Positions 1,886 through 64,000 of a DNA stretch of 64,000 nucleotides are shown one piece after another. This stretch comes from an uncultured bacterium. Its GTDB lineage: Bacteria > Verrucomicrobiota > Lentisphaeria > Victivallales > Victivallaceae. Every line of letters begins with the position of its first letter. The first letter of the stretch is position 1. The stretch spans positions 903-64,902 of the forward strand of contig CASFRF010000050.1 in the NCBI GenBank assembly GCA_949297015.1. Direction: 5' to 3'. The position numbers and the translations under genes were made by a program. Under the pieces are notes generated by a model. The model saw only the letters and a program-made list of their open reading frames with translations. It was not told the DNA's origin and searched no databases.

Positions 1886-3334
1886 GTGTTCATGTTTGAT
1901 CCGAGTCGATTTGATTATACCGGAGAGGAGATTGCGGCGGCGGCCGCCGCGGATCGGCTGTTGTCGTTGGAGCTGGAATTCAGTCGCCGCTGCAACTATC
2001 GCTGTCCTTATTGCTACACCGGAACCGCGGAGCCCGCGCCGGATGAACTCTCCGCCGCGGAACTCGATGACGTGATCGGCCAGGCGGCGGAACTCGGCGC
2101 GCGCAAGATCGTGATTCTGGGCGGCGAGCCGTTGCTGGTGCCCGGACTCTTCGACCATTTGGAGCGGATCCGGGAGCTGGGGCTCGGAGCCGAAATTTTC
2201 ACCAACGGTTCGCTGATTACCGCCGAAACGGCCGCCCGGCTCTACGCTGCCGACGCCCGGGTGGTGGTCAAGCTCAATTCGTTGCAGCCCGAGGTTCAGG
2301 ATCGGTTGACCGGACGTCCCGGGTCGCTGGCGCGGGTGATGCGGTCGATCGAATGGTTGCAGCGCGCGGGATTTGATTCGCCAGAGCGGCTGGGGGCCAG
2401 TACGGTAATTTCGAACGACAACATCGGGGAGCTGGCCGGACTCTGGCGTTATCTGGTCGAACGTCGGATCGATCCCTATTTCGAGATGCTGACGCCGCAG
2501 GGCCGGTTGCTCGACCACCCCGAGCTGGGGGTGGCTCCGGCCCGGGTCCGGGAACTGTTCGAGGAGTTGTCCCGTTACGATGCCGGGCGCGGCCGTCACT
2601 GGGAGCCGCAGCCGCCGCTGGTTGGAGCCAGCTGTTTCCGCCATCTGTACAGTTGCGTGGTCACGGCGACCGGCCGGGTCATGCCCTGTGTCGGCGTGAC
2701 GGTGGAGCTCGGAAATGTCCGAGAGACTCCGCTCGGGGAGATTCTGCGCGAGAGCAGCGTGCTGCGCGATCTCAAGGACTACCGGAACCGGATCAAGGAG
2801 CCCTGTGCCGGGTGCGAAAAACGGGAGCACTGCTACGGTTGTCGCGGAGCGGCCTATCAGTTGACCGGCGACTATCTGGCGGCCGATCCTCTGTGCTGGC
2901 GCAATGAGGCGAAGCGTGAGCAGATCGCGGTGCTGCCGGTGCCGCTGGCTCCGTTGCTGCCGCACCGGGCTCCGGCGGCTTTTCCCGGCTCGCTGGTCGC
3001 CGTCGGCGCCCGGAGTGTGGCCGAGGTGACAATTCCTCCCGACTCGCCGTACGGCGAAACCACCGGCGAGCTGGTGCCGGCGGCGCTGGTCGAACTGGCG
3101 GCGCAGGTGGCCGCGGCGGCTGATGCCTTCCGGCACCGGGGAAAATCGCGGCCGGGACTGCTGGTCGAAGCCCGCGAAGTGCAGTTTTACGCCACCGTCC
3201 GGGTGGGCGAGAGGTTGCGGATCGAGGTGATGGAGACGGCGAATTTTGACTGCTGGTATCTGGTCCGGTTCCGGATCGAACGCGAAGGAGCGGCGGTTGC
3301 CGGAGGAGGCTTGAAGTTATGCGTGGCGGAGTAA
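1886..3334 (+). CDS. radical SAM / SPASM-domain enzyme fused to a C-terminal FabZ-like (His-less, ApeI-type) hotdog domain
   Basis: CNYRCPYC (CxxxCxxC, nt 1991..2014); GGEPLL block; Cys-rich SPASM-type tail (CFRHLYSC..MPC, CAGCEKREHCYGCRGAAY, DPLCW). The last ~126 aa (nt 2954..3331) begin LLPHRAP..LV and continue ELVPAALVELAAQ...VQFYATVRVGERLRIEV. That is the FabZ/FabA hotdog pattern without the GHFP histidine. GTG 1886 is the longest start; ATG 1892 lies 5 nt after a GAGG RBS and may be the true one. Confidence 0.8.
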   Translation: MFMFDPSRFDYTGEEIAAAAAADRLLSLELEFSRRCNYRCPYCYTGTAEPAPDELSAAELDDVIGQAAELGARKIVILGGEPLLVPGLFDHLERIRELGLGAEIFTNGSLITAETAARLYAADARVVVKLNSLQPEVQDRLTGRPGSLARVMRSIEWLQRAGFDSPERLGASTVISNDNIGELAGLWRYLVERRIDPYFEMLTPQGRLLDHPELGVAPARVRELFEELSRYDAGRGRHWEPQPPLVGASCFRHLYSCVVTATGRVMPCVGVTVELGNVRETPLGEILRESSVLRDLKDYRNRIKEPCAGCEKREHCYGCRGAAYQLTGDYLAADPLCWRNEAKREQIAVLPVPLAPLLPHRAPAAFPGSLVAVGARSVAEVTIPPDSPYGETTGELVPAALVELAAQVAAAADAFRHRGKSRPGLLVEAREVQFYATVRVGERLRIEVMETANFDCWYLVRFRIEREGAAVAGGGLKLCVAE

Positions 3335-6900: not shown

Positions 6901-6944
6901 GGCTGATTGTCCGCCCCCGGCGATTGACGGAGGAGGAGAAATGA
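3915..6944 (+). CDS. MMPL/RND-type lipid exporter fused to a C-terminal DUF3261-like soluble domain
   Basis: Two helix bundles each carry the MMPL-type motif (GLAVDYGIHIYAARRG; GLAIDYGIFAVHACAEG), separated by a large soluble loop. After the last helix, a lipobox-like LLTVVGGC (Cys codon 6315..6317) is followed by a 208-aa Trp/Tyr-rich soluble domain. Start set to ATG 3915 (GGAGGA RBS just upstream); the track start GTG 3888 lies deeper inside the LolA-like gene. Confidence 0.7.
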   Translation: MAARRALEQRITRLLVRSVRHRRALWVTLMVLLALALAAIGLCGRFGNDVSQLFPEGSESGTAFRWMRRSGLANKVILEFTPPAEQSLPELEPYLTELAEHLARSPLIESVDFRFRADQLLETAQKLVAAVPLITSPEMLSAAVPAETVDRIYRQLLKPGLGSGEFLRLDPFGLTPPILAQLTKLQELSGLAFSPELPFPATVDGRRAALLLDVRPACSEISGSRELLTFLRQELATVPPGVTTRILAPHVRTVGNEEVIKRDLGVAGALSLLLLPALFLYCYRASWPSLWIPLLPVLAGILALGGLSLVLDEIYFFVIGMGGAVVGLAVDYGIHIYAARRGRSGLRRVGRIALPVAAGATTSCGVFLLLTGTGIAAYRQLGIYAAMALALSLLLFLMLLPGLLGSRGGRCRELRGVTWSPRQRRVVLLIWGGLLLLALPAAMKIHFSTGMEQFDGAPAEVRRDEAEFNAAWRRAPAPAVVIELADSLPELETRLEQRYRQLLPLAGESEIFGPSALWPAPEVRARNLAAWRAWLDSGHGGALFRELRRAAVARGFDPTFFAPFEQTLKAGIAAGEQQVLPEPIDSCLKRTRRRTPEGGWAGVLLVRDTPETVRQVRAALAAEPGAAVLSPVAFEQMLGTEFGQRFRYLLPSALVLIAVCAIFFLGSWRRALAALSVPATALLLVLGGYAWWGVELNMVSAFAGLVLAGLAIDYGIFAVHACAEGRHSGLWTALLLSAATTFVTGAAVLFSRHPVLFYTGLTLSLGILIAWLTAVLAVPALPRRWLAGCAGVLLLTVVGGCRTPAFTRGTLPELEPEQALREYRQWRERGLEAATWEAGLVFEYGFWQFPLLTVGQVEPAAEALRLVGLSPAGGTVFELAGRGEKLESVATLPFLKLEDPEAAGRVLYRDFANLYFGNAPAVEPEVRGQFLYSTVELSDGDRLRYTFGGRPLRLLQKSRSGFWHERWRAEYYEYQWRHGRWFPGEIDYENVAGGYRLIVRPRRLTEEEK

Positions 6945-7291
6945 GCATTCCCGATGCGCTGCGTGCGGCGTTGAAAATGACGGCTCCGGACCGGGGGTCG
7001 TTGTGTTTTGACGCCTCGTTTCCGGGGTTCGCCGGACATTTTCCGGAGCAGCCGGTGGTGCCCGCCGCGGTGTTGTGGCAGGCGGCGCAGCTGCTGGCGG
7101 AAAAGAGCGTCGGAGCCCGGCTCCGGCCGGTGCGGCTGATCCGGGCCCGGTTTTTCCGGGCGCTGGTTCCCGGCGATACTGCGGAACTGCGGGTGAGTTC
7201 CGGTCCGGAGTGTCGATGGCAATGCCGGATCGAGCGCGACGGCGTTCGGGCGGCGGAACTGGAGTGGGAGGTGGCGGATGCGAAGGCTTAA
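6941..7291 (+). CDS. FabZ/FabA-like 3-hydroxyacyl-ACP dehydratase (single hotdog, catalytic His present)
   Basis: FPGFAGHFPEQPVVPAAVLWQAAQLL matches the FabZ active-site block (GHFP..P..P). 116 aa. ATGA overlap with the exporter gene. Confidence 0.7.
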   Translation: MSIPDALRAALKMTAPDRGSLCFDASFPGFAGHFPEQPVVPAAVLWQAAQLLAEKSVGARLRPVRLIRARFFRALVPGDTAELRVSSGPECRWQCRIERDGVRAAELEWEVADAKA

Positions 7292-7751
7292 GCTCTATTT
7301 CCCGCGGGAGGAGGGGGTGCCGCCGCCGGTGATCGCGACGGTCCGGCACCGGTTGCGGTTCAGCGAGGTCGATGCGTTGGGCATCGCCTGGCACGGCCGG
7401 TATCCGGCCTTTTTCGAGAAGGCGCACACCGAACTCGGGCACAAGTGCGGACTCACCGCCGCGGCCTACCGGGCGGCCGGACTTGGGGCGCCGGTGGTGC
7501 AGTTTCACACCGACTACTATCAGGAGTTGCGGCTCGATGAGATTTTTGAAGTGCAGGCGGCGTTGATCTGGACCGAGGCGGCGCGGCTCAACGTCGAATA
7601 CCGGTTGACCGGCGCGGCGGGCGAGGTGGCCGCGACCGGCTATACGGTGCAGCTGTTCTATCGGCTCGACACCCGGGAGCCGCTGTGGTTTTCGCCGCCG
7701 TTGTGGGAGGAGTGCCGGGCCCGCTGGCGCCGGGGGGAGTTCCATGGCTGA
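7278..7751 (+). CDS. acyl-CoA/acyl-ACP thioesterase, 4HBT (YbgC-like) hotdog family
   Basis: RHRLRFSEVDALGIAWHGRYPAFFEKAHTEL fits the 4HBT/YbgC N-terminal catalytic block. 157 aa. 14-nt overlap with the dehydratase gene. Confidence 0.7.
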   Translation: MRRLKLYFPREEGVPPPVIATVRHRLRFSEVDALGIAWHGRYPAFFEKAHTELGHKCGLTAAAYRAAGLGAPVVQFHTDYYQELRLDEIFEVQAALIWTEAARLNVEYRLTGAAGEVAATGYTVQLFYRLDTREPLWFSPPLWEECRARWRRGEFHG

Positions 7752-8811
7752 AGCGGCGATTCCGATTCTCGGCTGCGATCTGATTACGCCGCTCGGGCAT
7801 GGCTTGGAGGCCAATTGGGAAGGTCTGCTGCGTGGTATTCGGCCCTTTGCTCCATTCGCCCGCTGTGAGCTCCCGACCGGACCGGAACCGCGGGCGGTTC
7901 GGCTGCTGACGGAGCTGGAACTGGAAGCGGATGAACCACCGGTGTTGTATGTGGGGACCACCGTCGGCGCGATTGAGCTGGTGGAGTCGGCGGTCCGGGC
8001 CGGGACTCCGCCGCCCGACCCGCTGGATGTGTTGTTGACGTGTGCCCGCCGCCACTTCGGGGCGACCCGGGCCGAGCTGGTTTCGGCGGCCTGTTCCTCC
8101 GGTCAGGCGGCGCTGGCGGCGGCAGTCCGGGCGATCCGGAGCGGCGAAGCGACCCGGGCGCTGGCGGTCGGCTGCGACGCGGTAAGCGAATTTGCGGTCT
8201 CCGGATTCACCACGCTGGGCGCGGTCTCCGCGACCGGGTGCCGTCCCTACGCGGTGGACCGGGATGGACTGACGCCGGGGGAAGCGGCGGCGGCGCTGCT
8301 GCTCGGATCGCCGGAATCGGTGTCGGAACGGGGGCTTCCGGTTGCCGGGTGGGTGCTCGGATGCGGCGCCAGTTGCGACGCGGAACATGCCACGGCTCCC
8401 CGGGCTGACGGCGAACCGCTGGTTCGGGCCATCCGGCAGGCGCTGGGCGAGGCCGGAATCGGACCTGCCGCGGTCTCCGCGGTGCTCGGACACGGTACGG
8501 GCACGGTCCATAACGACGCGGCGGAACTGGCGGCGCTGGAGAAATTGTTTCCGCCGGAGCTGCCGCTGTTGTCGATCAAAGGTCAGTGTGGTCATCCGCT
8601 GGGAGCTTCGGGACTGGTGCAGACGGCACTGGCACTGGCCGTGCTGCAACACCGGAAGCTGCCGCCGCAGGCCGGGTGCAGACACCCCGAGACGACGGCG
8701 CAAAAGCGGGTGGGAGCGACGGTGCGGGAGCTGGGGCCCGGGGTTGTGCTTTCACTGAATCTGGGCTTCGGGGGGCTGAACAGCGCGGTGGTGATTGGAG
8801 GCGCGACATGA
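7744..8811 (+). CDS. beta-ketoacyl-ACP synthase (short KS with Cys-His-His triad)
   Basis: Active-site Cys in SAACSSGQAALAAA; His blocks CDAEHATAPR and GHGTGTVHNDAAE; C-terminal SIKGQCGHPLGASG and LNLGFGGLNSAVVIG. 8-nt overlap with the thioesterase gene. Confidence 0.8.
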   Translation: MAEAAIPILGCDLITPLGHGLEANWEGLLRGIRPFAPFARCELPTGPEPRAVRLLTELELEADEPPVLYVGTTVGAIELVESAVRAGTPPPDPLDVLLTCARRHFGATRAELVSAACSSGQAALAAAVRAIRSGEATRALAVGCDAVSEFAVSGFTTLGAVSATGCRPYAVDRDGLTPGEAAAALLLGSPESVSERGLPVAGWVLGCGASCDAEHATAPRADGEPLVRAIRQALGEAGIGPAAVSAVLGHGTGTVHNDAAELAALEKLFPPELPLLSIKGQCGHPLGASGLVQTALALAVLQHRKLPPQAGCRHPETTAQKRVGATVRELGPGVVLSLNLGFGGLNSAVVIGGAT

Positions 8812-9413
8812 GGTGTTTCCCGTTGACGATTGTGGGCGGGGCCCGACTCGGCGCGGCGGAGTATCGACTCTACCGGCGAAAAGGCGTGTGCAACCGGCCC
8901 GCGGCGGATTCGGGGTTGTTGGCGGAACTGGCGACGCAGACGTGGATCCCGCCATGCCGTTCCGGCAATTTCCGCCGGGCGGGGGGCGCGGCCCGGAGCG
9001 CGGTACTGGCCGCGTTGCTGGCCGCCGGAGACGCGGGAGAGCCGATTCCGCCCGACGCCGGGATTCTGGGGTGGAACGGTCGCGGCTGTGTGGCCGAGGA
9101 TGAGGCCTATTTCCGGGACTATCTGGAGCATGGCGGAGAGCTGGGGCAGGGACGACTTTTCGTGCCGACGCTGCCGACCGCGCCGCTGGCCGAAGCGGCG
9201 ATCGCCCTCGGTCTGGGCGGCGAGGTCGCCTACTGGCGGACCGCGCCCGACACCGGGCGGCTCTTTGAACTGGCGGCGGACCGGCTGCGGCGGGAGCCGC
9301 GGGTATTGCTGCTGGAGTTGGGGTGTCAGGAGGTCACGGCGTTGTTCTGTGCTCCCGGATCATGGTTGCACGAACCCTGTTCCGCATTGGCGGAAGTGGA
9401 GTTTCCGGAATGA
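8808..9413 (+). CDS. Cys-less KS-partner protein (chain-length-factor-like)
   Basis: Start moved to ATG 8808 (ATGA overlap with the KS stop); the 74 upstream codons of track ORF 8586..9413 lie inside the KS gene. About 200 aa with no catalytic Cys/His. Block LFVPTLPTAPLAEAAIALGLGGEV parallels FAHSVYNAASAVAALELGLHGPV of the second partner at 14017. Function inferred from position and this similarity. Confidence 0.5.
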   Translation: MRCFPLTIVGGARLGAAEYRLYRRKGVCNRPAADSGLLAELATQTWIPPCRSGNFRRAGGAARSAVLAALLAAGDAGEPIPPDAGILGWNGRGCVAEDEAYFRDYLEHGGELGQGRLFVPTLPTAPLAEAAIALGLGGEVAYWRTAPDTGRLFELAADRLRREPRVLLLELGCQEVTALFCAPGSWLHEPCSALAEVEFPE

Positions 9414-10741
9414 GAATTCTGTTGTTTTCGATCAATTTCTGCACCTCTCCGTATCCGGTCTATCCGCTGGGGATGAGTGTGGTCGCCGGCGCGTTGACCG
9501 CGGCCGGACACGAGGTGCTGCAGTTTGACGCTTTGCCATACGGGCCTGAACGCTGGCTGGAGGCCGCCGCCGGCGCGGTGGGCCGGTTCCACCCCGACGT
9601 ACTGGGTGTGAGCTGGCGCAATCTCGACACCGTGGACAGCTCCGATTCCGCCGGGAGTTTGTTCCACGAGAGCGTGGCGCGGGTGCGCCGGATTCGTGCG
9701 CTCAGTTCTGCCCCGCTGGTGCTGGGCGGCGCGGGGTTTTCGTTGCAGCCGGAGCACTTGCTGGAGCTGACCGGCGCCGATTACGGGGTGGTGGGCGAGG
9801 GCGAGAAGGCGCTGGTGGAACTGGTTTCCGAACTTGCCGCGGGGCGGCGGCCGGAGGCGCGGTTGCGCCGCGGGACGGGCGGACCTCAGGTGGCCCCGCT
9901 TTATGTCCCGGAACTCATCGCCTACTACGGTGGGGAGACCCATTTGATTCCGGTTCAAACCAAGCGCGGCTGTCCGTTCCGTTGCGCCTACTGCACCTAT
10001 CCGGCGCTGGAGGGTCGGCGGGTCCGGCCGCGTCCCGTGGCCGAGGTGCTGGCCGACCTGGAACAGATCCGCGAGGCGCAGCCCGAGGCGATGATCTACT
10101 TTGTCGATGCCGTGTTCAACGACCCCGGCGGCAGTTGGCAGGCGCTGGTCGACGGCTTGATCGAGCGGAACTGGCAGTTGCCCTGGACCGCCTTTCTCAC
10201 CCCCTCCGGATTGACCGCGAAGGACCTGGAGCGGATGGCCCGCTCCGGTCTGGTGACGGCCGATCTGGGCGTCGATGGAGCGACCGACGAAACCCTTGTC
10301 GGGCTGGCCAAGGACTTCACCTTCGAGGCGGTGCGCCGGAGTTGTCAGACGTTGGCCGGCCTGGGAGTCGGGATCTCCGCCAGTGTGATGTTCGGCGGCC
10401 CCGGCGAGACGGCGGAGACGATCCGCCGGGGAATCGACAATCTGCGCGCACTGCCCGCCTGTTCGCTGATCTACGCCGGAATCCGGCTGCTGGCCGGTAC
10501 GCCTCTGCTGGAGCGGGCGCGGCAGGAGGGGCAGGTTCCGCCGGACTGGGACGGGCTGCGGGCGCTCTACTACTACGCGCCGGGCATCGATCCGGACCGG
10601 CTTGACGCCGAACTGAAAAGCGGCTTTGCCGGCTGCCGGAACTGCGTCTATCCCCCCTCCGGCCGCGACGCTGAGCTGCGGTTGCTCTATAAATTCGGTT
10701 ATCCCCGGCTCCGGCAGCTGTTGCAGCAGGAGATGTCATGA
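9410..10741 (+). CDS. B12-binding-domain radical SAM enzyme
   Basis: Start at ATG 9410 (ATGA overlap), MRILLFSINFCTSPYPVYPLGMSVVAGAL..GHEV, a Rossmann-like cobalamin-binding-type N-domain. Then KRGCPFRCAYCTY (CxxxCxxC) at the start of the TIM-barrel part. 443 aa. Confidence 0.8.
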   Translation: MRILLFSINFCTSPYPVYPLGMSVVAGALTAAGHEVLQFDALPYGPERWLEAAAGAVGRFHPDVLGVSWRNLDTVDSSDSAGSLFHESVARVRRIRALSSAPLVLGGAGFSLQPEHLLELTGADYGVVGEGEKALVELVSELAAGRRPEARLRRGTGGPQVAPLYVPELIAYYGGETHLIPVQTKRGCPFRCAYCTYPALEGRRVRPRPVAEVLADLEQIREAQPEAMIYFVDAVFNDPGGSWQALVDGLIERNWQLPWTAFLTPSGLTAKDLERMARSGLVTADLGVDGATDETLVGLAKDFTFEAVRRSCQTLAGLGVGISASVMFGGPGETAETIRRGIDNLRALPACSLIYAGIRLLAGTPLLERARQEGQVPPDWDGLRALYYYAPGIDPDRLDAELKSGFAGCRNCVYPPSGRDAELRLLYKFGYPRLRQLLQQEMS

Positions 10742-43227: not shown

Positions 43228-45027
43228 TCAGTTCAACGATTGCAAGCGCGCGGCCAGCTCGAGCTGCCGGGCCGGATCGGTTTCGCCCCGGATCTCGGCC
43301 AGGAGCCGGAGCCGCTCCTGTCGCAGAAAATCCTGATGGATCGCCTTGACACAGTCGCTCAATACCTGTTCGGACTCCTCCGGGGAATAGGCGGCTTCGT
43401 CCAGCAGCACCCGGCTGAGTTCCGGATCCGGCGTTTCACGCAGCAGCTCTTCGATCCGGGGCAGGGCCTGTTCCGGCTCGCCGTTCAAGGCGCAACCGAT
43501 CACCAGTTCCAGCGTTTTGCCGCTGAGTTCGCTGCTGAGCTCCTCCGCGGGCAGCAGTTCGGATAGACGCCGGGCCGTTCCCGGATCGTGCAACGCCACC
43601 CCCAGCAACGTCAGTTCCGCCCGCCGCCGGGGTGAAAAGATCGTTCGCTGCACCGGCTGTGGCGGCGGCGTGGACGGTTCGCGCCCGCCCGCGCCGTTGA
43701 AGCGCCGCCGTTCCTCCCGGGCCAGTCGGCCCAGTTCGGCGTGAATGGCGCTTTCGCTGACCAGCAACCGGGCAGCGGCCGCCCGCAGATAAAACTCCTG
43801 TCGGACCGGATTCGGCACCAGCTTCAGCAGCGAGACCACTTCGTCCACCGCCTGACTGCGCCCGGAGGCGCGGTTCAGGTCAAATTCCGCCGGCAGCGCG
43901 TCGCAGCACCAGTCAAGCCAGTTGCCCGCGTCGTCCACCGTGCGGCTCACCGCCTCGGGACCGGCGCTGCGGAAGAGTTCATCCGGGTCCTTCCCCCCCG
44001 GAATCCGGATCACCCGGACCTCCAGATCCAGCGGCAGCAGAATCTCCAGGGCCCGGCGGATCGCTTTCTGCCCGGCGCCGTCGGCGTCGAAGGCCAGCGC
44101 CACTTCGCCGGTGTAGCGCCGCAGAATCCGGGCCTGCATTTCGGTGAAGGCGGTCCCCTGCGGGGCCACGGCACAGGTCACGCCAGCGCGGTGAAAGGCG
44201 ATGGTGTCGAGCTGCCCTTCGCAGAGCACCGCCAGCTTGCGGTCGCGGATGGCGGTGCGGGCCAGCGGCAGGGCGTAGAGCAGCTCTCCTTTGCGGAACA
44301 CCGGCGTCTCGGCGGTGTTGACGTATTTGGCGGTGGCCGGATGGGCCTCCAGCGAGCGGGCGCTGAAGCCCACCACCTTGCCGGTCTCGTTCCAGATGGC
44401 GAAGGTGAGCCGCCCCTTGAAGTGATCGTAAAACCGGCCCGAACCCTCGTGTCGGCGGACGATCCCGGCCTGCAGCAGCTCCTGCTCCCGGAAGCCGAGC
44501 GCCCGGCCGTAACGCACGCAGGCGTCCCACTCATCGGGCGCGAAGCCGAGCCGGAACTGCCGCGCTACCTCCTCCGGAATCCCCCGCGAGGCGAGATAGC
44601 GCGCCGCCGGCGCCTCCGGCTGTTCCCGGAGCTGGCGCTCGAAGAAGCGGGCGAACTCCTCGTTGATCTGATAGAGCCGCTCCCGCTCGTCGGCCCGGGC
44701 CCGGTTCTCCCGGGAGGAGGCGCCGGTTTCCGGAATCACCACCCCGCAGCGGGCGGCCAGCAGGTGAATCGCATTCGGAAAATCGACTCCTTCGCGCTCC
44801 ATCACAAACCGGAAGACGTCACCACCTTTGCCGCAGCCGAAGCAGTGGTAGTGGCCGCGGTTCTGGTTGACCGTGAAGGAGGGGGTTTTCTCCTGATGAA
44901 ACGGACAGAGTCCCTTGTAGGTCCCACCGCCCGCCCGGCGCAGCTGCACCACGCTGCCGATCACCTCCACGATGTCGCAGCGGTGACGGATCTCCTCGAT
45001 GATCTCGTCGGGGATCGCGCGGTTCAT
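43228..45027 (-). CDS. dnaG: DNA primase
   Basis: CHC2 zinc finger CPFHQEKTPSFTVNQNRGHYHCFGCGKGGD; Toprim blocks VLCEGQLDTIAFH and ALAFDADGAGQKA. 599 aa. Confidence 0.9.
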   Translation of the reverse strand: MNRAIPDEIIEEIRHRCDIVEVIGSVVQLRRAGGGTYKGLCPFHQEKTPSFTVNQNRGHYHCFGCGKGGDVFRFVMEREGVDFPNAIHLLAARCGVVIPETGASSRENRARADERERLYQINEEFARFFERQLREQPEAPAARYLASRGIPEEVARQFRLGFAPDEWDACVRYGRALGFREQELLQAGIVRRHEGSGRFYDHFKGRLTFAIWNETGKVVGFSARSLEAHPATAKYVNTAETPVFRKGELLYALPLARTAIRDRKLAVLCEGQLDTIAFHRAGVTCAVAPQGTAFTEMQARILRRYTGEVALAFDADGAGQKAIRRALEILLPLDLEVRVIRIPGGKDPDELFRSAGPEAVSRTVDDAGNWLDWCCDALPAEFDLNRASGRSQAVDEVVSLLKLVPNPVRQEFYLRAAAARLLVSESAIHAELGRLAREERRRFNGAGGREPSTPPPQPVQRTIFSPRRRAELTLLGVALHDPGTARRLSELLPAEELSSELSGKTLELVIGCALNGEPEQALPRIEELLRETPDPELSRVLLDEAAYSPEESEQVLSDCVKAIHQDFLRQERLRLLAEIRGETDPARQLELAARLQSLN

Positions 45028-57613: not shown

Positions 57614-60600
57614 ATGCGTAAAATCCATTCGCTTATCGCGTTGCTGGCGCTGGGCGTCGGCGTCGGCGCCGCGCAGTTGAACGAGGTCACCATCCGCCCG
57701 GTGCCCTATGCCGCCCGCCCGCCCTCTCTGCGCGGGGAGATGAAGGAGTACGCCGCCGCCTCCGGGTTCCGCGCCACGCCGCTGGCCGCCGGGGAGGCCG
57801 GGCTGGTGCACGGCGGCGCCCGGACCGGATTCGATTTCCCCGCCGAGGCGACCTATACGGAGGTGAGTTTCTACTTCGATCGCGACCAGTTGTATCTGGC
57901 GCTGGATTGGAACGACCCTACACCCGCCTGCAACGACACCCCGCTCGAGCGGCCCGAAAACTGGCATTCCGGCGACGGCTTCCAATTTTCGCTGGCAGGC
58001 CCGGCGGGGGTGACCGAACTGGTGGCGTTTCCGGTCGAGAAGGGCCGGAAATTGGCGGTGTTCCGGCGGCGCGGAACCCGGTTCGAGCCGCTCTCCGGAC
58101 TCAAAACCGCCATCCATCTGCGGTCCGACGGTTCCGGCTGGAATTGTGAACTGGTTCTGCCCTGGGCGGTGCTGGGGCTGCCGGGGGCGCCGGAACAGGC
58201 GCTGGAGATCGGCTGGACCTTCGCCTGGAGCGGGCTGGGGCTGCCGGTGCTGAACCAATTGACCGAAGCCGAGCTGCGGGAGACCTGCCACACCTCGCTG
58301 TCGCTGGTGGCGCAGGAACAGAAATTCCGGATCAACAATCATCTGCAGCAGCCCGGAGACTGGGGGACGGTCCGTTTCGGCGAGGCCGCCGATCAGGTGC
58401 TCGAGACCAGTCGGGGGCACAACTACACCGCCGTCGGCTGTCCGGCCGGCAGCGCCCGGATCGACGGACAACTGGAGGAGTGGCCGGAGTCGGCGTTCAA
58501 GGCGTTTTCGTCGTTCGGTCCGCTCACGGACGACCTCTTTTCCGGAGCCTTCGCGCTGCGGTTTGACGCGGAAAATCTGTACCTGGCGCTGCGTATGCGC
58601 AGCGAAGCGGGGAGGCCGATCAACTTCGCTACCCAGGAGAGCTGTGCGGGCTACGGCGGCGGTGACTGTTTCCAGGTGCGGCTCGCCGCGCCCAACGGGT
58701 TCAGCACCAGTTTCTGCGCCTGGTATGACTCCAAAAACCGGCGCCCGGCCCTGACCGTGGACGGCAAGGAGTATCCCACGCCGTTTCTGCTCGAGGCCGG
58801 AGCCGAGCTGGCCTTTACCGGCGAGCCGCAACAGAACCGTTACCTCATGGAGCTGAAAGTGCCGTGGAAGGCGCTGCTCAACGGCCGGGCCCGGCCGCCG
58901 CAGGCGGGCGAGGAGTGGTGTTTCACGCTGCAGCCCTGGTGGCGGATGAGTTCGCGTTTCGCCTACGTCTCCCGGCTCGAATGCCAGTCGCTGCCGCCGC
59001 TCTCCTTCAGCTACCGGATGCCTGCGGACGGCCAGCTGGCGCTGGGTATCTTCAACGCCCGCGGCGAGCTGCTGCGCCAGCTGGTGAAAATGGAGTTCCG
59101 GCCGCGCGGACCGAACACCGAATTCTGGGACGGCAAGGATCAGTACGGCAAGGTCGTCCCCGCCGGAACCTACGAGCTCCGGGGCATTGTGACCGACGCG
59201 GTCCACGGCGTCTACGAGTTCACCTTGGGCAATCCGGGCAATCCGCCCTGGCCCACCGGTGACGGCAAGGGCGATTACATTTCCGATCAGGCCAATCTGC
59301 AGTCCGTGGTCACCGACGGGGAGAAGTTCTTCATCGCCGCGCCCGGCGCCGAAAAGGGGTTCGGCATTGCGGCCTTCGACGGTCGGGGCAACCGACTGTG
59401 GGGGTTGAACGAGGCCATCGGCGGGCGCTCGGTGGCGCTGGCGCTCTGTCGGGACAAGCTGTATGCGCTCTATTCGGGGCCTTCCCCCACCGACAACTCC
59501 ATGGTCTACAACGGCAAAAACGCGGTCGGGAAGAACTGGCTGGTCTGTCTGGACAAAAACACCGGGCAGCGGCTGGACTTCTCCCGGCGCGAACCCATGA
59601 CCGAGATCGCCAGCTATCCCTATCGCGAGGAGGTTACGCCGCTCTGGGAGCTGATCGCCGGCCGGAACTTCAGTCTGCGCCGGTACGCCGGGCAGCCCCG
59701 TTATTTCGACGCCGACATGGGCGAATCCACCGCCGGCGTCGGACTGGCCGCGCAGCCGGAGCGGTTGATCGTGGCGGATATCTATCAGAATCGGCTCGAG
59801 CTCTACGAACCGCAGAGCGCCCGCCGGATCGGAGAGTTCCCCCTGCCGCAGCCCGGCGGGCTCCACGCCTTGAACGAGCACGAGATTCTGGCCGTCTCCG
59901 GCCGGAAAGTCGTCAAGATCGATTTCCGGACCAACGCAGTCACGCCGGTGATCGACTCCGGACTGGAGGCCCCGGCCTATGTGACCAGCGACCGCGCCGG
60001 CAACCTCTACGTTTCGGACTGGGGAAAATCCTTTCAGGTCAAGAAATTCGACCGCAACGGCAAATTCCTGCTCGCCATCGGGCGCCCCGGCGGTCGGCCC
60101 TGGCTCGGAAAATTCGACCGCGACGGCATGCTGCTGCCCCGGGGCATCGCGGTCAAGAACGACGGCGAGCTGATTGTGGTCGAAGAGGATCCGCTGCCCA
60201 AGCGGGTCAGTTTCTGGGATGCCGCCTCCGGCCGGTTCCGGCGCGACTGGATCGGACCGACGCCCTACGGCGGAGGCACCTTCTTCTGGGTGGATCAGGA
60301 CGATCCGGCCATCATGCACGCCATGGGCACCCGGTTCAAGGTGGACTGGGAGAACGGCGGGCGCAGTGAAGTGCTGGCCACCGAGATGCGGCGGCTCGCC
60401 GCCGATCAGCTGGTGCCAAACGGACACAGCTGCATGGGGTACGCGCCCAGGGTGCTCCGGCGCGACGGCCGGGAGTGGGTGGCCATCTACACCCGGCGGA
60501 CCTTGATGATTCTGCGGCGCGAGGGCGATCGTTACGTTCCGGCCGCGGCGCTGGGCGGTCTCCACCGCTGGACCACCGACGACGGGACCCGGGAGTATGT

Positions 60601-62788
60601 GTGGGATACGCCGCTGGGGCGCCACTTGTACCCCTTCCGTCCGGCGCTGTTCAAGGGGCATGCGGGCGACAACTTCGCATGGAGCGACGCCAACGGCGAC
60701 GGCTTGATGCAGCCGGAGGAGGTCACCTTTGCCGCCACCGCGCCGCGCGGCGACGCGTTTCAGCCCGGGCGGCAGAACGAGTGGATCACGCAGTGGGGCG
60801 TGGGCGTGGCGGCGGATGGGGCGGTCTTCTTCTCCGGCGGCTGCCGCGATCAGGATGTGATTTACGAGGTGAAGCCGCGGGCGTGGACGCAGTACGGACC
60901 GGTGTACGACATCCGCGACGCCCGGGAGTTTTTCCGGTACGACGTCTACTCCACCTCGGGGCTGTTTGTCGATTCGCAGGACCGGGTCATCGTGGCCGCG
61001 CCGCTGGAAAGTCAGATCCAGTGGCCCGACGACGGCAGGGCCCGCAACGCGCTGATGGCGATCGATCGTCAGGGGCGCGTAGTCTGGGAACAGGCCGCGG
61101 TCTGGGAGCTCAGCGACCGCAATTTGTCCGCCAGCCGGGTGGCCGGGGAGTTCACGGTCAAGGGCATCGGACCGGTGCTCGGGACCTGGAGCTGGTGGTG
61201 GACCTTCAAGGGCTTTCTGGTCAGCGGGGACGGTCTGCACTTCGCCACTTTGCTAGAGGACACCAAGCTGGGGCCGCTGGCGGCGTGGAGCGAGAGCGCC
61301 AACTATTACTTCCAGAAACCCGACGGCAGCGCCTACATCGTCAACGGCGCCAATCAGGCGCTGCATGTGATCCGGATTGAAGGGCTGGCGGGGGCGCAGC
61401 GCTTCACGGCGCCGCTGACGATCTCCCCGGAGGAGGTCTCCCGGGCGGAGCGGGCGCAGCAGGTGGTCCGGAAGGAGCCGCCGCGACCGGTGCTTTACGC
61501 GCCCTGGCTGACCGGCGAACCGAAGCTCGACGGCGAACTTGACGAGTACCCCATCTTCAACCGTCTGGACGACGGCCGCGGCCACCGGGCGGAGATCGCG
61601 CTGGCGGTGGACGGCGAGCACCTCCACGTCGCGGCCCGGGTGCAGGACCCGACCCCGCTGGTGAACGCGGGCAACGACTACCGGACGCTGTTCCTGACCG
61701 GCGACGTGGTGGATGTGATGCTGGGGTTGGATCCCGCTGCGGCGGCGGGCCGCCGCGAGGCGACCTTCGGCGACGTCCGGATTTCGTTGAGCGTCATGAA
61801 CGGTCAGCCGATCTGCGTGCTGACCGTGCCCCGGCTGCGGGAGGGGAGCGACCGGGTTGAGCAGCTGATGGCGGCCCGGTTCGACCGGATTGCGGTGCTG
61901 GAAGAGGCGCGGATCGCCCTGCGGCGGCAGCGTGACTCCTACACGCTGGAGGCGGCGATTCCGTGGCGTGAACTGGGGCTCGACGCGCCTCCGCGGGAGG
62001 TCCTTTCCGGCGACGTCGGGGTGGTCTTTTCGGACAACTCCGGCGGTCGCGAAAAACGCTTCTATTTCTACAACGCCAAAACCGCCATGGTCGCCGATCT
62101 GACCACCGAGGCGACGTTGCAACCGGCGGAGTGGGGGGCGGTCTATCCGGCCCTGGGCCCCAATCTGCTGTGCGACGGTTCCTTTGAGGAGGCGGCCATT
62201 CCGGCTGCGGCGGAGGCCGCCTGGCCGACCGACGGGCGCGGCGAAAACAACGCGGTGCTGGAGCTGGAAAAGGAGTTTGCGGCGTCCGGGCGTCAGGCGT
62301 TGCGCCTGACGCTGCGCCGCCCCACCACCATGAGCGATGCGGGACGGCAGGCTCCGGTCTGGGAGGATTTTTTGAAGTCCGCCAACGACGGGAAGGGGGG
62401 CGAACACGCGGTGGTGGAACAGCACGGCATTCCGGTGAAGTCCGACACCGAGTACTGGTCGCGCTTCTTCTTCCGCGGGGAGAATCTGCGCATGGAGCAC
62501 CGGGGCGCGAACTCCAATCGCGGACACGCCTCGGTGATGGTGTCGATCATGTGGCAGGACGCGAACCGCCGGAACTTGAAGTACGAGCCGATCGCCAAGC
62601 TCGATTTCGACCGCGACCAGTGGACGGTGATCAACAACATCCAGTTCAACAGCGAACACGACGTGGCCAAACCGCTGCGCTCGCCGGAGGGGGCGGCCTA
62701 CGCGATTTTCGGGATCCGTTACAACGCCTGCATTCCGGACGTTACGCCGACGGTCTGGCTGGACAATCTGGAGCTGGTGGAGAAGTGA
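57614..62788 (+). CDS. giant secreted protein (1724 aa), paralog of the 51381 gene
   Basis: Signal peptide MRKIHSLIALLALGVGVGAAQ. ARIDGQLEEW and EPKLDGELDEYP modules. FWDGKDQYGKVVPAGTYELRG (FlgD-Ig-like). AGNLYVSDWGKSFQVKKFDRNGKFLLAIGRPGGRPWLGKFDRDGMLLPRGIAVKNDGELIVVEE aligns residue-by-residue with AGQFYVSLWGDRQCIEVYDAQGRAVRTIGKPGGRNWVGRFEEEGMLFPQQMALDRNGELWVTEN of the first giant protein. Confidence 0.7.
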   Translation: MRKIHSLIALLALGVGVGAAQLNEVTIRPVPYAARPPSLRGEMKEYAAASGFRATPLAAGEAGLVHGGARTGFDFPAEATYTEVSFYFDRDQLYLALDWNDPTPACNDTPLERPENWHSGDGFQFSLAGPAGVTELVAFPVEKGRKLAVFRRRGTRFEPLSGLKTAIHLRSDGSGWNCELVLPWAVLGLPGAPEQALEIGWTFAWSGLGLPVLNQLTEAELRETCHTSLSLVAQEQKFRINNHLQQPGDWGTVRFGEAADQVLETSRGHNYTAVGCPAGSARIDGQLEEWPESAFKAFSSFGPLTDDLFSGAFALRFDAENLYLALRMRSEAGRPINFATQESCAGYGGGDCFQVRLAAPNGFSTSFCAWYDSKNRRPALTVDGKEYPTPFLLEAGAELAFTGEPQQNRYLMELKVPWKALLNGRARPPQAGEEWCFTLQPWWRMSSRFAYVSRLECQSLPPLSFSYRMPADGQLALGIFNARGELLRQLVKMEFRPRGPNTEFWDGKDQYGKVVPAGTYELRGIVTDAVHGVYEFTLGNPGNPPWPTGDGKGDYISDQANLQSVVTDGEKFFIAAPGAEKGFGIAAFDGRGNRLWGLNEAIGGRSVALALCRDKLYALYSGPSPTDNSMVYNGKNAVGKNWLVCLDKNTGQRLDFSRREPMTEIASYPYREEVTPLWELIAGRNFSLRRYAGQPRYFDADMGESTAGVGLAAQPERLIVADIYQNRLELYEPQSARRIGEFPLPQPGGLHALNEHEILAVSGRKVVKIDFRTNAVTPVIDSGLEAPAYVTSDRAGNLYVSDWGKSFQVKKFDRNGKFLLAIGRPGGRPWLGKFDRDGMLLPRGIAVKNDGELIVVEEDPLPKRVSFWDAASGRFRRDWIGPTPYGGGTFFWVDQDDPAIMHAMGTRFKVDWENGGRSEVLATEMRRLAADQLVPNGHSCMGYAPRVLRRDGREWVAIYTRRTLMILRREGDRYVPAAALGGLHRWTTDDGTREYVWDTPLGRHLYPFRPALFKGHAGDNFAWSDANGDGLMQPEEVTFAATAPRGDAFQPGRQNEWITQWGVGVAADGAVFFSGGCRDQDVIYEVKPRAWTQYGPVYDIRDAREFFRYDVYSTSGLFVDSQDRVIVAAPLESQIQWPDDGRARNALMAIDRQGRVVWEQAAVWELSDRNLSASRVAGEFTVKGIGPVLGTWSWWWTFKGFLVSGDGLHFATLLEDTKLGPLAAWSESANYYFQKPDGSAYIVNGANQALHVIRIEGLAGAQRFTAPLTISPEEVSRAERAQQVVRKEPPRPVLYAPWLTGEPKLDGELDEYPIFNRLDDGRGHRAEIALAVDGEHLHVAARVQDPTPLVNAGNDYRTLFLTGDVVDVMLGLDPAAAAGRREATFGDVRISLSVMNGQPICVLTVPRLREGSDRVEQLMAARFDRIAVLEEARIALRRQRDSYTLEAAIPWRELGLDAPPREVLSGDVGVVFSDNSGGREKRFYFYNAKTAMVADLTTEATLQPAEWGAVYPALGPNLLCDGSFEEAAIPAAAEAAWPTDGRGENNAVLELEKEFAASGRQALRLTLRRPTTMSDAGRQAPVWEDFLKSANDGKGGEHAVVEQHGIPVKSDTEYWSRFFFRGENLRMEHRGANSNRGHASVMVSIMWQDANRRNLKYEPIAKLDFDRDQWTVINNIQFNSEHDVAKPLRSPEGAAYAIFGIRYNACIPDVTPTVWLDNLELVEK

Positions 62789-62793
62789 CCGCC

Positions 62794-62826
62794 CCCGGGC
62801 GGCGCGGGGGAGGGGGCGCCGCCGGG
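62794..62826. terminator. GC-rich hairpin between convergent genes (possible bidirectional terminator/stabiliser)
   Basis: CCCGGGCGGCG (62794..62804) pairs with CGCCGCCGGG (62817..62826), 10 bp with one bulged G and a 12-nt loop. It fills the 40-nt gap between the stop of the giant gene (62788) and the stop of the RT gene (62829). No U-tract, so a terminator function is uncertain. Confidence 0.3.
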
Positions 62827-62828
62827 AT

Positions 62829-63782
62829 TCAGCCGCAACCGGGTTTCGGGGGACGGCCGCGGGCGGCTTCGCGGCGGAGCAGTTCCCGGCCCGCCGCCAG
62901 GCACGGATCGTCGGTGACTCCGGCCGCGAAATTGAGCGTTCCGAGCAGGTTGTGGAGATCCCCGTGGAATCGCCACCGGGCATCGCTCCAGCCGAACTTG
63001 GCGATGTAGTGCAGCCGCAGCCGGAGCAGTCGCCGCTGTTCCCGGGGCAGGTTGACCTGCTGATTGACGACCAGTCCGGTCACGATCTGACGCCGTCCGG
63101 AGCCCTGGACCCGGATCTTGTCCCGGTTCAGTCGCAATCCCAGGCGGCCGACCGCCTGGGCGCTGTGATGAATCAGCTCGGGAATCAGGGCTCTGGGGAG
63201 CTCTCCGGAGAAGGTCAGATCGTCGGCGTAGCGGGAGTAGTTGAGCCCGTGCTGCGCCGCCCACGCGGCGAGCTCCTCGTCCACCGGATACAGGATCAGG
63301 TTGGAGAGTTTGGGGCTGGTCGGCGCCCCCTGCGGCAGGTGGTTCCGCCGACAGCACAGATGGGCCAGCAGCGCGGCGACCGGCGGTTCGCAGCCCGCCA
63401 GTCGGAACAGCGGGTAGACCCGGTCGATCCGGAGCGAGGGGAAGAAGTTCCGGAGGTCGAGACCCACCACTCTGGGCTGCCGCACATGGAGTCGGGCATG
63501 TTCCCGGATGCTCCGGCCCGGCTCGAACGCCGTCGCCGCCGGATGGGAGTCCAGGTGGCTCAGAAAGCGGTTCAGCAGCCGTCGCTGGAGGAGTTTGAGC
63601 ACCGGCACCGGCGCCTCGATGGTCCGCACGCCGCCGTTCCGCTTGGGGATGGTGCCGACCCGGTAGAACTCCGCGCTGTGATTGGCGATCCGGTACAGCA
63701 GCCCGGGCGGGCACTGGACCAGTTCGGCCAGCTCTCCGACCGAGCGGAGGAGCGGCAACGATTCCGGGATGATGAGACTCAT
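62829..63782 (-). CDS. retron-type reverse transcriptase
   Basis: All RT blocks in the retron flavour: YRVGTIPKRNGGVRTIEAPVPVLKLLQRRLL, HPAATAFEPGRSIREHARLH, VVGLDLRNFFPSL, LPQGAPTSPKLSNL, YSRYADDLTFSG (YxDD box), LGLRLNRDKIRV, and the retron-specific VTGLVVN motif after the palm. 317 aa with no fused effector, endonuclease or maturase domain. Confidence 0.85.
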   Translation of the reverse strand: MSLIIPESLPLLRSVGELAELVQCPPGLLYRIANHSAEFYRVGTIPKRNGGVRTIEAPVPVLKLLQRRLLNRFLSHLDSHPAATAFEPGRSIREHARLHVRQPRVVGLDLRNFFPSLRIDRVYPLFRLAGCEPPVAALLAHLCCRRNHLPQGAPTSPKLSNLILYPVDEELAAWAAQHGLNYSRYADDLTFSGELPRALIPELIHHSAQAVGRLGLRLNRDKIRVQGSGRRQIVTGLVVNQQVNLPREQRRLLRLRLHYIAKFGWSDARWRFHGDLHNLLGTLNFAAGVTDDPCLAAGRELLRREAARGRPPKPGCG

Positions 63783-64000
63783 GACGATTCCGGGATTTCC
63801 CTGATTTCAGAATAAAGGACAACTGCAGCCGCGACATTACCACTTATCTCTCCCGCAACGCAGGGCGGATGGCGGGCGCCCGTGGCGGACGATGCCGCCG
63901 TGCGACCGATCCGCAGCCGGACTTTTTTACGCCCGGCGTAAGGATGTCCGGCGAGGACGCGGTCACCCGGCGGCGCGGCCGACCGCGCGCTCCGGCGCCG
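63783..64000 (-). ncRNA. candidate retron msr/msd non-coding RNA region (partial, cut by the window edge)
   Basis: At least 218 nt directly upstream of the RT, in a genome where other gaps are mostly under 150 nt. All frames translate to Arg/Ala/Pro-rich low-complexity strings. Contains strong local hairpins (63917..63951; CGCGGTC/GACCGCG near 63958..63987). Retron ncRNAs normally sit immediately 5' of the RT. No a1/a2 repeat pair could be identified inside the visible part. Confidence 0.35.
63917..63951 (-). other. 35-nt two-tier hairpin inside the candidate ncRNA region
   Basis: Plus-strand reading: CCGGAC-TTTT-TTACGCC-C-GGCGTAA-GGAT-GTCCGG. This gives a 6-bp outer stem, a symmetric 4x4 internal loop and a 7-bp inner stem. 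Neither strand has a U-tract downstream of the stem, so it is not a canonical terminator. Confidence 0.5.

Follow-up and report, generated by a model that had tools for sequence, protein, structure and literature searches.

What does a retron do when no effector gene stands beside it? The question is raised by a reverse transcriptase (RT) gene near the end of a 64,000-nt stretch of DNA from an uncultured Victivallaceae bacterium (contig CASFRF010000050.1, positions 903 to 64,902 of the forward strand), which was analysed as a whole and is called the window below. Retrons have been classified as tripartite systems by Mestre et al. (PMC7736814), and a first-pass annotation of the window had described this gene as a retron RT with no effector in view. 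Our analysis shows that the RT belongs to the retron family, that a non-coding RNA (ncRNA) with a covarying structure lies next to it, that no effector is adjacent to it or conserved in its clade, and that RNA and RT form a discrete transferable cassette. The locus is probably a self-contained retron of two parts, an msr-msd ncRNA and an RT, without an attached effector gene. From these observations we infer the synthesis of multicopy single-stranded DNA (msDNA), its branch point and its biological role, by analogy with known retrons.

The RT is of the retron family

The RT gene of the window, hereafter the query, is a single reading frame:

62829..63782, minus strand: retron reverse transcriptase coding sequence, 317 aa, with an ATG start, the catalytic YADD, the retron VTG motif and no extra domain

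The translation contains NGGVRTIEAP, RSIREHARLH, LDLRNFFPSL, QGAPTSPKLSNL, YADD and VTGLVVN, that is, every motif that the first-pass annotation had quoted as the full retron RT signature. RVT_1 is the sole Pfam domain (residues 45-225, E 3.3e-19), and therefore no maturase, endonuclease or effector domain is fused to the RT, as had also been proposed. All of the PADLOC matches listed (25) are retron RT profiles, led by RT_III-A PDLC02942 (7.3e-85, 283 bits, residues 4-290, near full length) and followed by RT_Ec107-like (1.5e-77, 259 bits); the lead of RT_III-A over the other retron RT profiles is modest (283 versus 245-259 bits). The top match in NCBIfam is retron_St85_RT, at 218 bits slightly below the cut-off of 235 bits. 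The nearest solved structure is the RT of retron Ec86 (E 2e-39, residues 9-261), while a group II intron RT among the solved structures reaches only E 2e-9. Against the group II intron RT/maturase profile TIGR04416, the query scores 48.5 bits (cut-off 300), and against the DRT profiles it scores 36 bits for Drt2 (cut-off 390) and 17 bits for Drt3a (cut-off 200). Because PADLOC, NCBIfam and the solved structures agree, and the group II and DRT profiles fall far below their cut-offs, the assignment as a retron RT is sound, and the first-pass call is borne out by Pfam as well. The profile scores do not place the RT among the group II intron, diversity-generating retroelement (DGR) or UG clades, the outcome that the first-pass annotation had said would speak against a retron.

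The query carries the marks of the retron RT lineage (the profile match, YADD and VTGLVVN), with NAxxH reading HAxxH. The altered motif is EHARLH at residues 93-98 (window 63487-63504), where the retron NAxxH is present in 12 of 13 clade members and the query has H for N. This change is not a sequencing error, because the same protein was found in four samples.

A structured RNA gene lies directly 5′ of the RT

The window ends 218 nt upstream of the RT start. Four metagenome contigs from ENA (ERZ17292901-4) encode the identical RT and overlap the window almost base for base. One of them, L001 (loci and their contigs are given L numbers here), extends the sequence, with window position 64000 corresponding to L001 9121. 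Together, the 64-kb window and the extension (about 9 kb) give ~73 kb of inspected genome sequence.

The extension reveals a 315-nt msr-msd RNA gene on the same strand as the RT and directly 5′ of it, bounded by the inverted repeats a1 and a2. Its features inside the window, all on the minus strand, are listed below from the window edge towards the RT:

63818..64000, minus strand: the 3′ 183 nt of the ncRNA (msd template region and a2), cut by the window edge
63873..63994, minus strand: long imperfect msd hairpin, the predicted msDNA stem-loop (from fold and covariation)
63927..63941, minus strand: msd tip hairpin, UUACGC-CGG-GCGUAA
63835..63839, minus strand: UAAUG, which lengthens the a1/a2 stem by 5 bp through pairing with CAUUA
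63818..63833 (L001 9288-9303), minus strand: a2 inverted repeat, CGCGGCTGCAGTTGTC
63783..63817, minus strand: 35-nt spacer from a2 to the ATG of the RT, with the purine-rich stretch CAGGGAAAT before the ATG

The 5′ 132 nt of the ncRNA lie beyond the window (L001 8989-9120) and contain a1, the putative branching G and three msr hairpins, all of them 5-132 nt past position 64000. Repeat a1, GACAACTGCAGCCGCG (L001 8989-9004), is complementary to a2 at 16 of 16 nt, with 283 nt between the arms. CAUUA stands just 5′ of an invariant unpaired AG, the G of which (L001 9010) is the putative branching residue.

The full RNA folds at -170.4 kcal/mol (z = -7.0), and none of 100 shuffled sequences was as stable. 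In the predicted fold, a stem of 16+5 bp closes the RNA and is directly followed by an unpaired G; three hairpins form in the 5′ part and a single long one in the 3′ part. When the 218 nt inside the window were folded alone, z was -1.2 and 19 of 200 shuffles folded equally well, which is unexceptional for the GC content. The structure is therefore significant only when the whole RNA is considered, including the part beyond the window, and from covariation. These results bear on several first-pass claims. The region upstream of the RT is a retron ncRNA, as proposed, of which the window holds only the msd/a2 half, and a perfect 16-bp a1/a2 pair was found flanking msr-msd in the extended sequence, where the annotation had suggested looking for it. 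The strong hairpins described in the 218 nt are real in the sense that the long hairpin at 63873-63994 is among them, and their stability by itself is ordinary.

The lack of a credible protein frame in the 218 nt upstream also held. The only open reading frame (ORF) in 63783-64000 is one of 40 aa with a GTG start, and none is conserved across homologous loci. A peptide-coding or DRT2-like frame in the ncRNA was considered and rejected, with stops breaking every frame in some homologues and none consistently open; no open reading frame across the template is maintained in the lower-GC homologues. Two ORFs that overlap the RT, one antisense (287 aa) and one in another frame (374 aa), were likewise dismissed as high-GC artefacts without a conserved counterpart in lower-GC relatives, in which the ORFs overlapping the RT are 62-161 aa long and vary in position by locus. 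In Rfam, neither the part within the window nor the full upstream region matched anything above noise, with no intron or other family found.

Some further observations concern the region around the ncRNA. By eye, a promoter-like pair TTGCAA-N17-TACAGT can be recognised in L001, 58 nt upstream of a1, and L013 and L016 have similar pairs 14-15 nt upstream; the consensus scan does not support them. Among five copies of the query ncRNA region there are two single-nucleotide polymorphisms only (window 63862 and L001 9073), both in stretches that are unpaired in the consensus.

The RNA structure is maintained across an RT clade

A homologue search of 5.8 billion proteins placed the query in a tight RT clade of about 15 clusters with 42-61% identity, beyond which the scores fall to generic retron RTs. 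RT_III-A PDLC02942 is the top profile for the query and for the nine clade members that were re-scanned (283-337 bits, near full length), and RT_Ec107-like is second for the query and for seven of the nine (259-301 bits). Seven distinct clade loci were fetched besides the query (L005, L009, L012, L013, L016, L098 and L099). The clade loci have a GC content of 46-64%, and human-gut metagenomes are the source of several.

In six of the seven loci (L005, L009, L012, L013, L016 and L099), the RT is closely preceded by an a1/a2 repeat of 15-23 bp whose arms are 250-343 nt apart; L098 has a weaker repeat of 12 bp. The arms vary in sequence between loci yet remain complementary. In these relatives a2 ends 17-29 nt before the ATG of the RT, and the ncRNA length in the clade is 284-385 nt. 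A consensus structure was calculated with RNAalifold from an alignment of six ncRNAs. The same RNA is found in relatives with RTs 52-61% identical, with 85 consensus pairs, 43 of which carry compensatory changes. Paired cells make up 92.4%, compared with 35-53% after sliding the partners by 1-3 columns, a percentage that is inflated because the structure was derived from the same alignment on which it was scored. This scoring leaves the count of compensatory changes uninflated relative to the slid controls, which have 8-13 pairs changed on both sides compared with the 43 observed, and none of 500 shuffles reached the observed values. The a1/a2 helix covaries at 14 of 22 pairs, and in msd helices 5-8, 18 of 28 pairs are changed on both sides.

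Two elements are conserved in sequence. The AG after the stem (alignment columns 23-24) is invariant in all six sequences, and its G is unpaired both in the consensus and in the minimum free energy fold. Standing right after the stem, at the 3′ end of a1, this unpaired G matches the position of the retron branching G, and branching itself is predicted from this position. The msd tip stem UUACGC/GCGUAA is nearly invariant across RTs 52-61% identical, and the A-U, C-G and G-C pairs of helix 10 are identical in all six sequences; unlike the tip, the remainder of the msd hairpin varies through compensatory changes. The near-invariance of the tip hints at sequence-specific recognition.

A covariance model of the msr matches upstream of every clade RT tested, including L101-L107, which are further copies of the L005-type locus carrying the same msr and were outside the training set. 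The model had no match at 80 more distant retron loci and none in the window itself. The ncRNA family could therefore not be tied to any effector-bearing retron type. When GTDB genomes were scanned with the clade alignment, the matches listed were generic retron RTs of at most 47% identity with no clade member among them, and they were used solely as an outgroup set. In phage and plasmid collections, the best RT matches were at most 41% identical and no close relative was found. It is worth noting that two of the four metagenome samples with the query also contain a second clade member, P0005 (L016 in ERZ17292901 and L017 in ERZ17292902). Its RT is 56% identical to the query, it has its own a1/a2 and msr, and it lies on a contig of 61% GC in a different gene context.

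No effector gene accompanies the cassette

The first-pass annotation had reasoned that any effector must lie beyond position 64000. The extension instead shows, 5′ of the RT start, an intergenic stretch of 582 nt, then a divergent PFL-like glycyl-radical enzyme gene, its radical-SAM activase and sugar-metabolism genes (all in L001). On the other side lies a convergent 1724-aa ORF (57614-62788, plus strand) with a signal-peptide-like N-terminus, in agreement with the giant secreted-protein gene annotated before. No effector-like gene was found on either side of the RT in the extended contigs, and PADLOC matched no retron effector profile among the 46 ORFs of the window and extension. The adjacent or fused effector of a tripartite defence retron is absent from the locus.

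The neighbourhoods of the query and its relatives compare as follows:

Query: divergent glycyl-radical enzyme gene; convergent 1724-aa gene
L009: 1.3 kb without genes upstream; convergent LysR gene
L013: divergent holin-like gene; convergent oxidoreductase gene
L016: convergent gene for a CxxCxxCC protein
L098: divergent LacI gene; convergent gene
L005-type and L012: mosaic mobile-element family with AAA+, DnaJ_C and ankyrin-repeat genes

Clade members lie in unrelated contexts, most of them without a candidate partner gene, and no partner is common to the clade. The neighbour proteins tested at the clade loci matched no retron-effector profile, and, except for the AAA+ and ankyrin-repeat proteins of L005 and L012, had homologues neither in the window nor around the other clade RTs. 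Neither Pribosyltran nor the PADLOC phosphoribosyltransferase (PRTase) profile matched any neighbour or the window.

The cassette was delimited by comparing L009 with L005. Their DNA is 89% identical along a 1362-nt segment that begins 15 nt before a1 and ends about 57 nt beyond the RT stop, with no DNA homology outside the cassette. This confinement indicates that the RNA and RT pair alone was the unit moved between genomes. In L009, a direct duplicate of the cassette's left end, with a1 (…AGAAGAATAAAATAAAACAACTGCAACAGT), precedes the functional copy by 67 nt (7582-7611 and 7649-7678); this could be a footprint of cassette insertion.

Some loci do have genes next to the RT. The mobile-element relatives have one to three tandem diverged ankyrin-repeat genes after the RT (L005 9153-10883, L101 6151-10902, L102 1403-4856 and L012 12491-14158), and the ankyrin-repeat gene of L005 matches the PADLOC candidate PDC-M72A (3e-40). 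An AAA+ gene lies upstream in L005 and L012 (49% identical); neither an AAA+ nor an ankyrin-repeat gene is near the query. In L099 (P0011, RT 49% identical), a 363-aa ORF (6921-8012) overlaps the RT stop on the same strand. Pfam and PADLOC gave no match for this ORF, which has no homologue in the other fetched loci or the window and could be a lineage-specific partner.

The rest of the window was surveyed as well. It has a GC content of 66%, and its DnaG is nearest to primases of named Victivallaceae, Lentisphaeria and Victivallis (54-58% identity); the host is thus a Lentisphaerota-like member of the Planctomycetes-Verrucomicrobia-Chlamydiae (PVC) group, as suggested earlier. PADLOC matches to RT_UG29 and RTasDnaG-like correspond to this housekeeping primase (43228-45027, minus strand) and were discarded as a second RT; no second YxDD motif and no phmmer match to another RT was found in the window. 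The pVip matches are probably due to two radical-SAM enzymes (1886-3334 and 9323-10741), and PADLOC matches to dCTPase and mad3/8 elsewhere in the window were likewise set aside. The 40-nt gap between the stops of the convergent RT and 1724-aa genes (62789-62828) contains a GC-rich inverted repeat, CCCGGCGGCGC…GCGCCGCCCGGG, which may be a bidirectional terminator; it has no T-run and was not called by the scan.

Comparison with known systems

Ec86 (Eco1, type II-A3) provides the nearest solved RT, and the query RNA resembles its ncRNA in the a1/a2 stem, the unpaired G, the msr hairpins and the msd hairpin. Ec86 has an adjacent nucleoside deoxyribosyltransferase-like effector, an msDNA of 86 nt and a short ncRNA; the query has no adjacent effector, and its ncRNA and predicted msDNA are much longer. 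DRT2, which consists of a UG2 RT and an ncRNA, is a two-component system without a separate effector gene, and the query shares this architecture. The query differs from DRT2 in its RT class, in the absence of a conserved open frame in the template and in the presence of a1/a2 repeats.

The closest likeness is to the retrons that lack accessory genes. Stand-alone (msr-msd)-RT cassettes have been reported from clade 11 and from one branch of RT clade 2, namely the Ec107/Eco5 branch, sister to the PRTase-linked type III-A1 (PMC7736814). A 2026 SPIRE survey (preprint) likewise reports that clade2_Ec107like is abundant and without recurrent accessory modules. Like the Ec107 branch (Retron-Eco5/Ec107), the query is a chromosomal (msr-msd)-RT cassette and its clade has no recurrent accessory gene; RT_Ec107-like is its second-best profile, and the functional question is the same. 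It differs from that branch in having RT_III-A as the top profile and in its host, which is Lentisphaerota-like, not a member of the Gammaproteobacteria or Bacillota. The ncRNA of the clade (284-385 nt) sets it apart as well, in that the msr model had no match at the 80 other retron loci. With type III-A (III-A1, clade 2), the query and its nine relatives share the top-scoring RT profile, while the PRTase-like and winged helix-turn-helix genes of that type are absent from the query locus, the window and all clade loci. We assume that PDLC02942 represents the III-A1/clade 2 neighbourhood, because the Ec107-like profile ranks second. With RT_III-A first and RT_Ec107-like second for the query and most relatives, the RT clade appears to sit in or near the clade 2 neighbourhood, whether inside the Ec107 branch or beside it, judging by profile scores alone. 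The first-pass annotation had offered an orphan or non-canonical retron as an alternative; the extended contigs support an orphan, and non-canonical does not apply, as stand-alone cassettes are a described category (PMC7736814).

Proposed mechanism and alternative explanations

By analogy with established retron biology, one transcript would span the ncRNA and the RT. The a1/a2 stem of 16+5 bp would close the ncRNA, the RT would dock on the conserved msr hairpins, and synthesis would be primed from the 2′-OH of the invariant unpaired G just 3′ of the stem (L001 9010). The msd would then be copied leftwards, starting at the base next to a2, and the resulting msDNA, a branched RNA-DNA molecule, would measure roughly 150-190 nt and be mostly one long hairpin. 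As to its role, we tentatively suggest that the cassette senses phages or defends against them by way of a partner encoded away from it, be it a host factor or a trans gene; alternatively, the role may be independent of any effector, or domesticated. It is rather improbable that the RT-msDNA complex itself is the functional output, with no protein effector anywhere. If it were, the msDNA hairpin with its invariant tip (UUACGC-nnn-GCGUAA) might sense or titrate a nucleic-acid-binding protein of a phage or the host, or serve as its decoy, and this would explain why the 1.36-kb RNA and RT unit alone moves between genomes.

Several points weigh against a self-contained two-part retron. Everything beyond the observation that the RNA folds like a retron ncRNA is our inference, and the share of paired cells is inflated as described above. 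A sigma-70 consensus scan upstream of a1 called no promoter, and the query has HAxxH where 12 of 13 clade members keep NAxxH. An effector in trans is possible, since only about 73 kb of the genome was inspected. RT_III-A retrons carry PRTase and winged-helix partners, which the lineage could have lost. The mobile-element clade members carry ankyrin-repeat genes downstream of the RT, and the overlapping 363-aa ORF of L099 suggests that the clade may not be uniformly effector-less.

These points feed several rival explanations. There is a minor but real chance that the locus is an ordinary tripartite defence retron with its effector in trans, for example a III-A-like PRTase and winged-helix pair or an uncharacterised protein, in which the RT-msDNA complex would keep the effector in check until phage infection. 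The top-ranking RT_III-A profile, whose members use PRTase-like effectors, is in line with this, as are the limited extent of the inspected sequence and the fact that Mestre et al. explicitly left the possibility open (PMC7736814). None of the 46 scanned ORFs matches an effector profile, however, and the cassette moves between contexts without a partner gene. Most chromosomal clade members are flanked by convergent or divergent genes with no neighbouring family in common, and known retron effectors adjoin the RT or are co-transcribed with it. According to Mestre et al., most genomes with orphan retrons are without homologues of known retron-associated proteins (PMC7736814). An ankyrin-repeat (PDC-M72A-like) and/or AAA+ partner that was lost or relocated in the query is very hard to credit. 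The one to three same-strand ankyrin-repeat genes after the RT at L005-type loci, and the AAA+ and ankyrin-repeat proteins common to L012 and L005, would fit such a partner, but these are not independent associations, because all the loci belong to a single mosaic mobile-element family. Neither gene is near the query, L009, L013, L016 or L098, the window has no homologue, and the L009/L005 homology, which ends about 57 nt past the RT stop, does not reach the ankyrin-repeat gene.

That the locus is a decaying, functionless remnant of a III-A or Ec107-like retron after effector loss is highly improbable. Loss of the PRTase partner has been suggested for the Ec107 branch by Mestre et al. (PMC7736814), and the N-to-H change in NAxxH could be read as decay. 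Against this, all catalytic and retron-specific motifs are kept in RTs across members only 43-61% identical, and the ncRNA helices are maintained through compensatory substitutions, which require selection on the RNA. The RT is identical in four samples, the two SNPs in the ncRNA are both in unpaired positions, and the cassette was horizontally transferred intact. Neither common frameshifted or truncated copies nor a dN/dS near 1 was seen in the ~15 protein clusters and 20 loci examined. A non-retron RT, such as a group II intron fragment, a DGR or an Abi/UG/DRT system (for instance, with DRT2-like rolling-circle synthesis of a new gene), has in its favour that DRT2 also pairs an RT with an ncRNA of a few hundred nt. 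By the profile scores given above, this reading is effectively refuted. The RT also has no maturase or endonuclease domain, the RNA has canonical a1/a2 repeats with an unpaired G after the stem, no template-spanning frame is open in lower-GC homologues, and Rfam gave no intron match.

Implications for stand-alone retrons

By every sequence-level criterion tested, the query is a retron, and it matches the stand-alone category. It is a new lineage within this known kind, from a PVC host. The category was already known and no new mechanism is demonstrated, so that nothing is overturned. To our knowledge, all mechanistic work on retrons so far has concerned those guarding an adjacent toxin. What stand-alone retrons do, through trans effectors or in another function, was left as an acknowledged open question by Mestre et al. 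in 2020 (PMC7736814). The long msd template (about 180 nt), combined with a compact RT of 317 aa, is of potential interest for DNA production in vivo. With this locus, the stand-alone retrons gain a well-defined lineage whose host phylum (Lentisphaerota, PVC) is uncharacterised and whose ncRNA structure is backed by covariation, together with direct evidence that the RNA and RT pair alone is a unit of horizontal transfer.

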